A stretch of 64,000 bases of DNA from Candidatus Anstonellaceae archaeon (GCA_038891035.1 JAWAEW010000004.1:4728-68727); one strand, 5' to 3'; shown: positions 13,153 through 22,911, counted from the stretch's first letter. Notes: generated by a model from the letters alone, not told the origin. Numbers and translations are program-made.

Positions 13153-14259
13153 TCAGCTCAGCCTCGCAATTGCCCTCATCAGTTCCCCCAAATCGCCGCC
13201 TAGCAAGGGCGTTGCAGACCTGATAAATATCAATGTTATTGCAAGAGCCACGAATGGGTAAAAGATAGAAGTGATAGTTATTTGATAGAGTAATTCTTTC
13301 CCTTGAGCTATCGCAAGCGCATTCTCATCTCTTTCCGCACCAATTTGGAGAGCAGTGTTCAGTATCACAGCTACCCCTCTAAATCCACTAAAGCACATAC
13401 CTGCAAGCTTATCATCAAATTTCTTTTCATTGACTTTGATGAATGTTGGGTCTGTCAAAACAAAAAAGGTCGGCCACACAAAGTAAAACCCAATCGCAAT
13501 TGCAATCAACAATCCACCAATTCCTCTTGTAAGTGGGAGTATCCTAAGCAAAAGGCCAAGAGGAAGAAACACTGCAAGCATATTTTTTTGTACATAATCA
13601 GCAAGGGCATACTGTGCATGCAAAGAAATCAAAAGGCCAACTATCTTATTGCAAAGAAGATGCGCCTCCTCAACTGCTTTATGCACAGCTAAATCCCAGT
13701 CCCAACACCATACAGGAAATCCGAAGATGCTTATGCAGGTTGAAGCAAGAGTCTCCTTTGCCTTGTTGGCCTTGAATATATTTGCGTAATGTCTGTCAAG
13801 CGCACTTACTTTTTCTTGTATCTTGCATTTGAATGCACCAATTGGCCCGCCTCCATAATCAGCAGTTTTCCAAATATAATATCTCCCGCCTGGCACAGCA
13901 TTGCAAGCAAGACTGCCACCCGTGCCTATTAATTGCTCCATTATTCCAAAAGCTCCATAGTTTGATACTTCAAAAAGAAGCTCCACAACAAAAAGAATCA
14001 TTAAAGAAGATGCAGAGACTTGCAGCATTTCGGTTTTAGCATACCTCTTGAGATTTTCTGCTTGAAGGGCATATCCTACCATATAAATCAAAATATTCAA
14101 AAACAAGCAAACTAGCACTGCATACCAAGCTATCCCTCTCCATTCTCCTGATGCGCCCATCTTGCTTTCGAATTTTGCTTTTTCAGATTCTGCTAAATTA
14201 CTTACATCAATTGGATAAAGAAGCGAAAACAATGCAACTAATAAAAGTATTCTTTTCAT
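13153..14259 (-). CDS. paralog 6 (368 aa) of the polytopic membrane protein family
   Basis: Carries all three family motifs: YMVGYALQAENLKRYAKTEMLQ, VFLPLGLLLRILPLTRGIGGLLIAIAIGFYFVWP, and the tail LLGGDLGELMRAIARLS. ATGA overlap with the upstream gene. Confidence 0.85.
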   Translation of the reverse strand: MKRILLLVALFSLLYPIDVSNLAESEKAKFESKMGASGEWRGIAWYAVLVCLFLNILIYMVGYALQAENLKRYAKTEMLQVSASSLMILFVVELLFEVSNYGAFGIMEQLIGTGGSLACNAVPGGRYYIWKTADYGGGPIGAFKCKIQEKVSALDRHYANIFKANKAKETLASTCISIFGFPVWCWDWDLAVHKAVEEAHLLCNKIVGLLISLHAQYALADYVQKNMLAVFLPLGLLLRILPLTRGIGGLLIAIAIGFYFVWPTFFVLTDPTFIKVNEKKFDDKLAGMCFSGFRGVAVILNTALQIGAERDENALAIAQGKELLYQITITSIFYPFVALAITLIFIRSATPLLGGDLGELMRAIARLS

Positions 14260-15587
14260 ATCATCTGCCCAAGCTTGCTTATATCTACTTCTTCTCCAAG
14301 CAAGTGCGCAACACCTCGCGCAACTGCAGCAATCACTATGAAATTGACTGCTGCAAAAAATACTACAGTGATAAATATTAATCCATTAGCGCGTATAACC
14401 ATATCTAAAGAGGCAGGCACAAATGGAAGATCTGCAGTCAAACCTCCAAGGCCAAATCCAATCCTGTGGCCAGAGACAAGCGACTCTTCATTGTAGCATG
14501 CTTGAGACGGAGCACACATTACATTAGATGGTAAATCCTTATAGGAAAATATCTCTGCCCCCTTGCATCCACATGCATTAAATGATATTGGGCTTTGTGT
14601 GTTTGCCATCCCAGGCGCGATTGAAGCGTTTATCACTAACATTGTCGGGTACATGATATAAAGTGAAATGCAGATTGCAACAAGTGCTCCTGCAAATTGC
14701 CTCATAAAAGGCAAAGAGCGCAATACAATCGCAATCGGAAGAAAAACTAAAAACAAGCCGTTGAGTATATATTGAAGTACAAAATACTCAAATGCAGCAG
14801 TCAGATACGAAATGGTTGCTGTGTTTGCAAGGTTGTTAACTATTGCAAGATTTAAGGTCTCACCGCCATGGGTTGCCTCATTATAACCCGCAAGTGAAAT
14901 AAAGCAAGAGCCTGTGCAAACCATTTTTGTATACGTAGTCCTAATCTCATAGGCACCTGCCAAATAGCGCAAAGTTCGCAAATTGGAATGTGCCACATCC
15001 ATTAGCTTTTCCAAATAAATTATGCTGCCATCATAAATCGATTTTGTCTGGTAAGGTTCGTATATTTTTGGCAGTCGGGTAAATATTGAAGCAATCTCCC
15101 CTATTTGCAGGGTGCAGAAAAGTTGAATAGTCCCAAAAACCACTCCGACAATGATGAGACTTGTAAAAATTTGTGCCGCCTCAGTTTTTGCCCAAGTAGT
15201 AAGTCTTGGATTTTGGATTGCTTCTCCTGCCATATAACCCAATGCTACTATAATTGCAGTTGCAATAGCTGCCAATGCGGCAAGCCAAAAGGTTTCGCTT
15301 GTACTAGACGCGCCACAGATTGGAGCAGACGTAGCAGTGCATACTGCATCAGGCGAGCCTGCAGGCTCACACTTGACATCGGGTGCCCCACAGCATCTGT
15401 TTGGGGTAGCGGCACACTTTGAGCCCAACGAAAGGCATTCTTTGCATGTAGGAGGATAGGAATTTATGTCGCAAAAAAGAGCAGGGCAGCAAGGTTCTCC
15501 CTGGCATCTTTCACCCAAAGTTGCACACTCTGCCCAGATGCTTTGTGCAAAAGCCATCACAATAACAACTAATGCAAAAAGCTTCAT
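14256..15587 (-). CDS. paralog 5 (443 aa): two knottin-like Cys repeats plus the polytopic membrane core
   Basis: Signal peptide, then C-x6-C-x4-CC-x4-C-x8-C and C-x6-C-x6-CC-x6-C-x9-C. Family motifs are YMAGEAIQNPRLTTWAKTEAAQ, VFLPIAIVLRSLPFMRQFAGALVAICISLYIMYP, and the tail LLGEEVDISKLGQMI. Confidence 0.85.
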   Translation of the reverse strand: MKLFALVVIVMAFAQSIWAECATLGERCQGEPCCPALFCDINSYPPTCKECLSLGSKCAATPNRCCGAPDVKCEPAGSPDAVCTATSAPICGASSTSETFWLAALAAIATAIIVALGYMAGEAIQNPRLTTWAKTEAAQIFTSLIIVGVVFGTIQLFCTLQIGEIASIFTRLPKIYEPYQTKSIYDGSIIYLEKLMDVAHSNLRTLRYLAGAYEIRTTYTKMVCTGSCFISLAGYNEATHGGETLNLAIVNNLANTATISYLTAAFEYFVLQYILNGLFLVFLPIAIVLRSLPFMRQFAGALVAICISLYIMYPTMLVINASIAPGMANTQSPISFNACGCKGAEIFSYKDLPSNVMCAPSQACYNEESLVSGHRIGFGLGGLTADLPFVPASLDMVIRANGLIFITVVFFAAVNFIVIAAVARGVAHLLGEEVDISKLGQMI

Positions 15588-21628: not shown

Positions 21629-21630
21629 TT

Positions 21631-22911
21631 TTACACCAATTTGCTTAAGCCATAAAGCTGCGGCTCTCCTCCAAAATAAATTATGAAATTCCTTGCTGCA
21701 ACCACCCCTATTATTATGGGAAGCAAGGAGAAAACTAAAGCAAGCACTCCATAAATGCTTGTTGCTGGAAGAGCATACTCTGTTACGTTGGCTATGGCTG
21801 CATCAATATCAACATAACTATAAAGTGAAAGAAAGGGATACATCATCATGCTAAAGCCTGCCTTTGCAATAGCAAATACATTCCTTACATCGGCCCAGCA
21901 TTGAGTTAGTGGATAACCTGTAGTCACCTGAAGCACAGGGCATATCAACAAAGCCCATCCGTTTTCCCCACTTAGAATAACCCCTCCAAATCCCCCAACC
22001 AAGCTTCCGATCGACCCACCAACACTGGAAGATATAGCAGACACCACAACTCCAAGAGGGCTTTGGATGAAGGATTGCATTACAGGGTCACATACAAAAT
22101 TTGTAAGTGGTGGATTTCTAATGTCTGGCAACACATTAATCCCTTCTATGTATTGTACAATCTGCGGGGAAAAAGTGGCATAGATTTCATGAGAAATTGC
22201 AAACGAGGCAGGATAAATCACAGAAGCCGCAATTGAAGCCCCTAAAATAGTCCCACCTATCTTTCTTGTGAGTGAAAAGCACCGCAAAAAGATACCCACG
22301 GGCAAAAAGATTGCGGCAGTATTGACAAAGAAGATTACAAATGATTTTTGCGCAGACAAAAACAAGAGATAGTTTGCAATTCCATCCATTGCAAAGCCTA
22401 ATTCTGCAATCAATGGTGCAAATCCTGCACCAGGGGTCTGAGTAAAGCTTGTGCTTACTAAATGGAGATTCAACCCGGCAGTATAAGTATATGAAGCATA
22501 TCTTGCGACATTGAAATAAGCTGTCGCAAGCTTAAGATAAAGGGCCCTTCCATCCTCTCTTATTTTTGCAATGGCATCCAAGGCGTACTGCCCTGCACCC
22601 ATCTGTTTGCCTGAAAGAAAACTTGCCGCAGCATCCGCACTTGCAATCATTCCAACACAAAATACTGCAATCAGAACTCCTGCGAAAAGTTCCTGAAGCT
22701 CTACTTTGGTCCATGCTTCAAGCAGCCTAAGCTCAAAAAAAGAACCTACCATATATGTGATCCCAATAAACGAAGCCGCAATAAGCACTGAAAGTCCAGT
22801 CCAATAGTAAACCTCTGCCTGCCACCCAGAAGCGCTTGCAAAATTTGCCAATATAAGCAAAGAAGCCGCAATTTTTGCCAAACTAGGCAGCAGCCTTTGC
22901 ATATTCGTCAT
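21631..22911 (-). CDS. paralog 1 (426 aa) of the polytopic membrane family; first gene of the operon
   Basis: Has YMVGSFFELRLLEAWTKVELQ, FLPVGIFLRCFSLTRKIGGTILGASIAASVIYP, and the tail YFGGEPQLYGLSKLV. The alternative ATG at 22902 (MQRLLPS..) lies about 28 nt from the TATA-like box and may be a leaderless start. Confidence 0.8.
   Translation of the reverse strand: MTNMQRLLPSLAKIAASLLILANFASASGWQAEVYYWTGLSVLIAASFIGITYMVGSFFELRLLEAWTKVELQELFAGVLIAVFCVGMIASADAAASFLSGKQMGAGQYALDAIAKIREDGRALYLKLATAYFNVARYASYTYTAGLNLHLVSTSFTQTPGAGFAPLIAELGFAMDGIANYLLFLSAQKSFVIFFVNTAAIFLPVGIFLRCFSLTRKIGGTILGASIAASVIYPASFAISHEIYATFSPQIVQYIEGINVLPDIRNPPLTNFVCDPVMQSFIQSPLGVVVSAISSSVGGSIGSLVGGFGGVILSGENGWALLICPVLQVTTGYPLTQCWADVRNVFAIAKAGFSMMMYPFLSLYSYVDIDAAIANVTEYALPATSIYGVLALVFSLLPIIIGVVAARNFIIYFGGEPQLYGLSKLV

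Follow-up and report, generated by a model that had tools for sequence, protein, structure and literature searches.

A conserved Micrarchaeota operon of six ordered membrane protein paralogs with remote resemblance to VirB6 and CedA

CedA and CedE, two channel proteins of crenarchaeal DNA exchange, are homologs of VirB6 with five transmembrane (TM) helices (PMC11868833, PMC9905601), and the N-terminus of CedA resembles a pilin (PMC9905601). In type IV secretion VirB6/TrbL acts as the inner-membrane channel and as the platform on which the pilus is assembled. VirB6 genes can also be duplicated: in Rickettsia five copies, RvhB6a-e, encode proteins of 674-1154 amino acids (aa), in which only a short TM-cytoplasmic region is conserved between divergent flanks (PMC2653234). 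Here we characterise an operon in a 64,000-nucleotide (nt) stretch of DNA from Candidatus Anstonellaceae archaeon (GCA_038891035.1, JAWAEW010000004.1:4728-68727), in the following called the window, in which six tandem genes encode paralogous membrane proteins. The source organism is a member of the DPANN phylum Micrarchaeota, i.e. of reduced, host-dependent archaea. The sixth of the proteins is 98% identical to a protein on contig JAWAKW010000001.1 of a 'Candidatus Anstonellaceae archaeon' metagenome-assembled genome (MAG). With about even confidence we read the six proteins as diverged subunits of a hetero-oligomeric, VirB6/CedA-like envelope platform that would serve contact-dependent transfer or the assembly of a surface structure.

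Six paralogs in a fixed order

The minus strand between positions 13153 and 22911 is filled exactly by six back-to-back open reading frames (ORFs), which encode proteins of 426, 307, 1103, 607, 443 and 368 aa in transcription order. A preliminary description of this region had claimed six tandem paralogs that share three motifs, and this was borne out: every motif string that it quoted occurs in the translations, and in a formal MAFFT alignment the three elements lie in register, in the same columns, across all six proteins. Pairwise similarity among the paralogs is weak (BLASTP identity 22-39%, E-values from 2e-10 to about 5). Searching protein sets with a profile of the six aligned paralogs, the route to which that description had pointed, recovered each copy in other genomes with E-values of 1e-21 to 1e-103 and yielded 2,993 clusters (at 50% identity) among 1.84 billion proteins, far above chance. 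The database members of the family are all annotated as 'hypothetical'.

Using position-6 orthologs as query and one genome per species, a scan for related loci returned 22 of them, labelled either as Micrarchaeota or as 'uncultured archaeon' isolates of the same studies. A complete locus was available from 14 further Micrarchaeota genomes, each of which has exactly six tandem copies. Whatever the operon position, the best match of a copy in another genome was the one at the same position (15/15 for all six). Identity in the core amounted to 39-48% within an orthogroup and to a uniform 17-21% between orthogroups. The frozen gene order together with these values indicates that the copies arose long ago in a single burst of duplication, which preceded the divergence of the sampled Micrarchaeota. 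The commonest junction between the genes is a 4-nt overlap of start and stop codon (n = 41). Together with two large partner genes, described below, the paralogs form an eight-gene module, outside of which the genes vary from genome to genome. Two short divergent members of the family, P0127 and P0093, were considered as single-copy relatives in another context; this was rejected, as they are position-3 copies without the big insert and lie in the same type of array.

The protein at position 1 (21631-22911, minus strand like the whole operon) comprises a signal peptide, five TM helices, an outer loop of about 148 aa and the tail FGGEPQLYGLSKLV; its orthogroup occupies position 1 in 15/15 genomes. 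Position 2 (20705-21628) encodes a minimal core, without the C-terminal tail motif and with GN replacing GG. The preliminary description had called the tail of this paralog degenerate; the feature is real, since the absent tail and the GN are fixed in the position-2 orthogroup of all 15 genomes. That this copy is missing the tail and the second glycine alike hints that the tail may touch the TM3-TM4 turn. The largest copy is always the one at position 3 (17404-20715), whose length ranges from 700 to 1580 aa in the related loci; here it carries, in addition to the core, a loop of 725 aa that separates TM4 from TM5 and contains 75 cysteines and 13 repeats of the CPxxC(R/K) type. In this giant outer loop (residues ~350-1015) eight of the 13 motifs have the extended form CxxCPxxC(R/K), and the repeats resemble a small disulfide or metal-binding module that has no match in Pfam. 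At position 4 (15584-17407) a knottin-like N-terminal ectodomain of 268 aa with 42 cysteines precedes the core and gives weak matches to the Conotoxin and Dickkopf cysteine patterns of Pfam. Position 5 (14256-15587) combines a Cys-rich N-terminal ectodomain with the core and the tail LLGEEVDISKLGQMI. Position 6 (13153-14259) has no variable ectodomain and is the most conserved copy, with about 50% identity across the phylum. In Ca. Anstonella stagnisolia (locus L001, 4573-10004) the paralogs at positions 4 and 5, of 933 and 876 aa, bear CARDB cell-adhesion domains where the window has Cys-rich modules, such that the ectodomain was swapped between lineages and the core was kept.

Hydropathy maps gave for each of the six proteins a signal-peptide-like N-terminus followed by five further hydrophobic helices. 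The orientation was derived from segment statistics over about 90 sequences. The three motif-bearing segments have K+R fractions of 0.12, 0.31 and 0.08, a cysteine content of 0.1-2.5% and 0-0.14 N-x-S/T sequons per 100 aa. For the N-terminal domain and the two long loops the K+R fraction is about 0.055, the cysteine content reaches 8.4% and sequons occur at 0.3-0.85 per 100 aa. Charge, cysteine and sequon statistics thus support a topology with the N-terminus outside, the C-terminus and the motifs in the cytoplasm and the variable parts on the outer face. This agrees with what had been assumed at the outset, namely an N-out signal peptide with five TM helices, cytoplasmic motifs and outward-facing variable regions.

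Motif conservation was counted over 90 sequences (six orthogroups from 15 genomes). The strongest positions are the proline of YxxYP (100%), each arginine of LRxxPxTR (99%), the first glycine of the GG that follows it and the glutamate of AKxE (97% each). The methionine of the YM pair at the end of TM1, the glutamine preceding TM3 and the glycine of the LGG tail each reach 83%. AlphaFold models were examined for position 6 (predicted local distance difference test score, pLDDT, 85; predicted TM-score, pTM, 0.79) and position 2 (pLDDT 86, pTM 0.78). In both, the conserved residues lie within very tight helix-helix turns: TM2 bears the glutamate in its first turns, the two arginines flank a TM3-TM4 turn of 1-4 residues, and the GG and the proline are inside TM4. 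According to the models the cytoplasmic exposure of the motifs is small. A shared docking surface for one intracellular partner, as had been suggested for the motifs, is possible; given their location in tight turns, the conserved residues could equally serve folding or ring assembly among the six subunits.

Remote resemblance to VirB6/TrbL and CedA/CedE

Pfam gave no match above threshold for the six window proteins, for 67 family members or for consensus sequences, and searches of Pfam, NCBIfam and PHROGs with the eight operon proteins gave nothing above threshold either. A sequence search of the PDB with two family profiles returned nothing relevant. The earlier remark that the motifs were not recognised from any named family therefore stands as far as Pfam is concerned; it has to be qualified by structural matches to VirB6/TrbL and by sub-threshold matches to CedA and CedE in NCBIfam. 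What was found is a remote resemblance to annotated families of known function and not membership in one of them.

Of 67 family members, 14 matched the NCBIfam model of CedE (best E-value 2e-5) and 11 that of CedA (best E-value 1.7e-4), while none of the other models, out of 18,950 in total, was matched by more than three. On the position-6 protein the CedE match covers residues 208-269. On the side of CedE it involves profile positions 126-197 of 260, i.e. the TM3-turn-TM4 hairpin, which was matched by the position-6 consensus with an E-value of 8e-4 and by the consensus of the whole family with 5.6e-3. Weak matches to TrbC/VirB2 pilins were obtained for 3/67 members.

The two structural models were compared with 350,542 PDB chains. 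For position 2 the first rank was taken by the VirB6 protein TrwI (7o3v_G; E-value 0.028, probability 0.98, TM-scores 0.36/0.40 over 290 columns). For position 6 another TrwI/VirB6 chain (8rt9_F) was found at rank 2 with an E-value of 0.2 and TM-scores of 0.22/0.28. In BFVD, a separate viral library, a phage protein annotated 'TrbL type IV secretory pathway' ranked second by E-value and had the top probability (0.92) and the top TM-score (0.38). Chains of TTYH, another pentaspan protein, also entered the hit lists, with weaker values than VirB6 (E-values 0.3-1.2, TM-scores 0.13-0.25). Taken singly, each of these matches falls short of the usual thresholds. That two paralogs and two libraries agree with each other and with the CedA/CedE signal is, however, not easily put down to chance.

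Hydropathy, segment statistics and the secondary structure of the AlphaFold models give the family the layout of VirB6: the N-terminus is outside and the C-terminus inside, and of the five TM helices the second is followed by a large loop on the outer side. VirB6 has an invariant, essential tryptophan in its conserved TM-cytoplasmic region (PMC2653234). No tryptophan is conserved family-wide in the 90 sequences, where conservation is seen for M, E, Q, P, R, R, G, A, P and G. The family profiles match neither the 9-TM protein nor other ORFs of the Sulfolobus conjugative plasmid pNOB8. The family is thus best described as a distinct one with a VirB6/CedA-like fold and topology, probably a very remote relative, and should not be filed as a member of VirB6/TrbL or CedA.

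Partner genes and genomic setting

The two genes that follow the paralogs encode giant proteins. Gene 7 (9085-13152, minus strand) specifies a secreted lipoprotein of 1355 aa with the lipobox LALGC and 65 cysteines, gene 8 (4615-9075, minus strand) a single-pass protein of 1486 aa with a signal peptide, an ectodomain of about 150 aa, a TM helix at residues 172-190 and a cytoplasmic part of about 1300 aa. Genes like these two accompany the six paralogs in every locus that is long enough to show them. The 1355-like gene is always the next after the paralogs. The 1486-like gene can be placed elsewhere: in a divergent Micrarchaeota MAG (locus L027) it is found at 670-4110 on the minus strand, upstream of the paralogs (4083-15512, plus strand) and not at the operon end.

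In all loci the lipoprotein is conserved along its full length. A Pfam vote over 17 orthologs assigned it no known domain. A homology search with its C-terminal 556 aa returned two proteins only, although the related loci of sufficient length carry orthologs. Among the 17 orthologs about 20 cysteines are invariant and a dozen more nearly so, and conserved blocks include GWCxxCTYATLAVQK, NVMPILD and MVDAGIIGxIYDxW; the C-terminal half might have an enzyme-like fold. In the 1486-aa protein, the partner that had been suggested for the motifs, conservation is limited to residues ~20-260, which comprise the ectodomain, the TM helix and a short stretch beyond, and the long cytoplasmic part is highly charged, coiled-coil-like and not conserved. 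Neither partner resembles any component of a type IV secretion system (T4SS).

Upstream of the operon a single TATA-like element, TTTATAAAAAT (22921-22931, minus strand), was read from the sequence. It lies in the 81-bp gap before a divergent methionine aminopeptidase-like gene, 10-20 nt 5' of the first ATG of the position-1 gene, and is likely the promoter of the operon. Its spacing suggests a leaderless transcript that would begin at 22902, such that the second ATG, at this position, is probably the true start of the position-1 protein.

From their translations, the genes that flank the operon resemble ordinary archaeal housekeeping genes. Farther out in the window, Pfam identified a cysteinyl-tRNA synthetase and a GTPase of the initiation factor 2 (IF-2) type, and no ATPase domain was found among the window genes scanned with Pfam. 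Genes for secreted or membrane-anchored proteins of 415, 633 and 251 aa without family match lie within 10 kb of the operon (29667-32812 and 24863-25618, both minus strand). The archaeal ribosomal RNA genes are unlinked: 23S lies at 1677-4609 (plus strand) and 16S at 58570-60183 (minus strand), with about 54 kb between them. The match for 16S extends over 1614 nt, against 1478 positions of the model, such that an insertion or intron may be present; an ORF at 1336-2049 that overlaps the 23S gene is probably spurious. A transfer RNA (tRNA) match of Rfam at 25623-25754 (minus strand) extends over 132 nt on a model of 71 positions and was not called by ARAGORN; it probably represents an intron-containing archaeal tRNA gene. 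At 35720-44986 (plus strand) there is an island of low G+C content (33-38% versus about 43% elsewhere), which adjoins the tRNA-Ala gene at 45002-45075. Its three large ORFs (1454, 846 and 772 aa) lack TM helices and a Walker A motif and were matched by neither Pfam nor PADLOC, and the island may be a horizontally acquired block.

A possible envelope platform compared with known systems

Since the six subunits have been encoded in one translationally coupled operon throughout the history of the phylum, an obligate hetero-oligomer of fixed composition is suggested. Each subunit would have a cleaved signal peptide and an outward N-terminus, followed by TM1, a tight turn and TM2, an outward helical domain of about 100 aa, TM3, the Arg-flanked turn and TM4, a variable outward loop, and finally TM5 with a short inward tail. 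The six would assemble at fixed stoichiometry via the conserved TM core, in the simplest case as a (pseudo-)hetero-hexameric ring. The conserved glutamate, the two arginines and the amphipathic LGG tail could form a cytoplasmic rim that provides contacts between subunits or a landing site for a partner, candidates being an ATPase whose gene lies elsewhere or, in the 1486-aa protein, the conserved segment just behind the TM helix. The ectodomains, which are Cys-rich or of the CARDB type and vary between lineages, would point away from the cell and act in adhesion or recognition. The 1355-aa lipoprotein would sit on the outer face, and the 1486-aa coiled-coil protein would reach into the cytoplasm. 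By analogy with VirB6 and CedA the complex may pass a substrate across the membrane or assemble a surface structure, and the apparatus would probably act at the interface with the host cell.

A number of observations weigh against such a platform. The Pfam family TrbL/VirB6 (PF04610) was matched by none of the six window proteins or the 67 members (E <= 1) and by none of the orthogroup consensuses (E <= 10). The matches to CedE (NF053657) and CedA (NF041796) reach 17-19.2 bits against an equivalog cut-off of 400 and cover only about 65 residues. The signal is also nearly confined to one orthogroup: in the other five CedA was matched by 1/75 sequences, and the top family there was a pilin-like conjugal transfer protein of a Mycoplasma integrative and conjugative element (4/75). 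When two family alignments were compared by hhalign with 40 Agrobacterium-type VirB6 sequences the probabilities were 0.17% and 0.09%, a negative result that is weak, as the VirB6 alignment is phylogenetically narrow. All Foldseek matches have E-values above 0.01 and TM-scores below 0.5, designed helical bundles rank next, and long-helix membrane proteins attract spurious structure matches. VirB6 as solved is a pentamer and not a hexamer. A search by phmmer with Agrobacterium VirB1-B5 and two pNOB8 DUF87 ATPases found none of them in the window or in the related loci (together about 0.5 Mb from more than 20 genomes), and both large partners lack a Walker A motif. Paralogy, the fixed gene order, the conservation of the operon and the membrane topology are shown by the data; the hetero-oligomeric ring, the channel or platform function and the role in host contact are inferred.

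A more far-reaching version of the platform is unlikely in our judgement: the module would be a host-interaction machine of Micrarchaeota, in which a hetero-hexameric VirB6-like pore, independent of an ATPase or powered in trans, is capped by the lipoprotein and tethered by the coiled-coil protein, such that both cytoplasms are linked. If this were true, the machine would dock onto the host cell, lipids, metabolites, DNA or proteins would pass through the pore from one cell to the other, and a conjugation-type channel would have been repurposed for symbiosis and fixed by a six-fold subunit duplication at the root of the phylum. The nanotubes of ARM-1 were rejected as an explanation, as they originate from the host (PMC11329633).

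Alternatively, the six proteins could form a structural scaffold at the cell surface, an idea that we hold to be doubtful yet worth serious thought. As membrane anchors they would display variable adhesin or Cys-rich domains or fasten the surface layer (S-layer) to the membrane, their core would serve only membrane insertion and mutual packing, and the likeness to VirB6 would be a convergence of pentaspan proteins with helical outer bundles. That the variable parts are all extracellular and adhesin-like fits well with this, as do the lack of an ATPase in cis, the negative profile-profile comparison with VirB6 and the fold matches, which remain under the usual significance and include the pentaspan TTYH. 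However, position 6 has no ectodomain and is still the most conserved copy; as an anchor it would have nothing to display, which is difficult to account for. A passive anchor also needs no invariant charged residues at the cytoplasmic rim, and among specific matches VirB6/TrbL comes first for both modelled paralogs and in both libraries. The published S-layer protein of Micrarchaeota is moreover the product of a different gene, Cys-poor and with a PF05123 domain (bioRxiv 10.1101/2021.04.28.441871), such that we rejected an identity of the paralogs with the S-layer protein. On another reading, the operon would encode the membrane part of a true DNA-exchange system of the Ced/Ted or T4SS type, with the VirB4/CedB-type ATPase and the VirB2/CedA1-type pilin elsewhere in the genome. 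The CedA/CedE and the VirB6 fold matches speak for it, and the weak TrbC/VirB2 matches are consistent with the pilin-like N-terminus of CedA (PMC9905601). Dispersed genes are also known: the Ced genes of Sulfolobales are split between loci, where CedA and CedE have been proposed to form a hetero-oligomer (PMC11868833), and the Rickettsia T4SS genes are distributed over five genomic islets (PMC2653234). On the other hand neither an ATPase nor a pilin gene was found near the operon, over a total of about 0.5 Mb from more than 20 genomes, and the two conserved partners are unlike any T4SS component, such that we consider this explanation quite improbable.

Uptake of solutes or lipids, e.g. of host lipids or nucleotides, by a pentaspan permease or scramblase unrelated to these systems appears very improbable. 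Micrarchaeota genomes are reduced and essential genes or whole metabolic pathways are absent (bioRxiv 10.1101/2021.04.28.441871); a need for host lipids or nucleotides is presumed here, and the conserved arginines at the inner membrane boundary might bind anionic head groups. Against uptake, there is no similarity to transporter families in Pfam or NCBIfam, the operon has no energising component, and five TM helices with huge ectodomains are unusual among permeases. A domesticated or resident module of a mobile element or virus, e.g. of envelope or entry proteins, is largely refuted and hardly credible any more. It could draw on the phage-encoded TrbL among the fold matches and on the fact that VirB6-type proteins usually travel on conjugative elements. 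The cluster has, however, a G+C content of 40-44%, like most of the window, its housekeeping neighbours vary among genomes, and its gene order fits vertical inheritance across the phylum. In addition, no match was found in PHROGs, 72,556 plasmids, 50,697 phage records or IMG/VR contigs.

Genome reduction is common to Micrarchaeota and other DPANN archaea, which are thought to need contact with host cells. Our literature searches turned up no publication in which host contact is attributed to a Micrarchaeota gene cluster, none that connects VirB6 or CedA with Micrarchaeota or DPANN archaea, and none on the eight-gene operon. This unannotated, strictly ordered and phylum-wide envelope operon is a concrete candidate for host contact, testable in existing co-cultures. 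If the link to VirB6 and CedA is true, the fold extends into DPANN, in a setting without a neighbouring ATPase or pilin gene, which would bear on the origin and domestication of conjugation-type channels. The six order-frozen and mutually equidistant paralogs would also provide a clean natural example of the transition from a homo-oligomer to an obligate hetero-oligomer. About 3,000 clusters (50% identity) in public data without a Pfam entry represent a gap in database coverage.

Among known membrane proteins, the pentaspan prominin and TTYH have a signal peptide, an outward N-terminus, five TM helices, two small inner and two large outer loops and an inward C-terminus. On paper this topology is identical to that of the six paralogs; prominin and TTYH are, however, eukaryotic and have no motifs in common with the family. 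VirB6/TrbL, represented by TrwI of R388 (PDB 7o3v/8rt9), shares with the family the number and orientation of the TM helices (five, N-out and C-in), the large outer loop that follows TM2 and long helices that reach beyond the membrane, and is the best specific structural match for the two paralog models. Unlike VirB6/TrbL, the family shows no sequence or profile similarity to it, has cleavable signal peptides, and carries the signature E / R-x5-R-x2-GG / P instead of the Trp region of VirB6. It consists of six distinct subunits, in contrast to the homopentamer of VirB6, and no VirB4, VirB2, VirB3, VirB5 or VirB8 is encoded near the operon.

The closest archaeal relatives are CedA, CedE and TedA of the Ced and Ted DNA exchange systems. 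Like the family these are archaeal five-TM proteins, and CedA and CedE exhibit the recurrent sub-threshold hidden Markov model (HMM) similarity in the TM3-turn-TM4 hairpin. The two paralogs CedA and CedE, with their proposed hetero-oligomer (PMC11868833), are comparable to the six-paralog operon. Ced and Ted loci comprise a pilin and a VirB4-like ATPase and belong to Thermoproteota, whereas the operon described here combines six paralogs with two giant partners and belongs to DPANN. In organisation the closest analogy is that of the duplicated and much enlarged VirB6 genes of Rickettsia, which like Micrarchaeota is obligately host-dependent and has a reduced genome (PMC2653234). The Rickettsia copies match Pfam TrbL and are part of a complete T4SS with VirB4, B8-B11 and D4, unlike the copies of the operon; they are furthermore bacterial, reside in a diderm envelope and number five instead of six. 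What is new, compared with all these systems, is the family as such, its fixed set of six paralogs and the fact that it occurs without the other parts of a type IV system.

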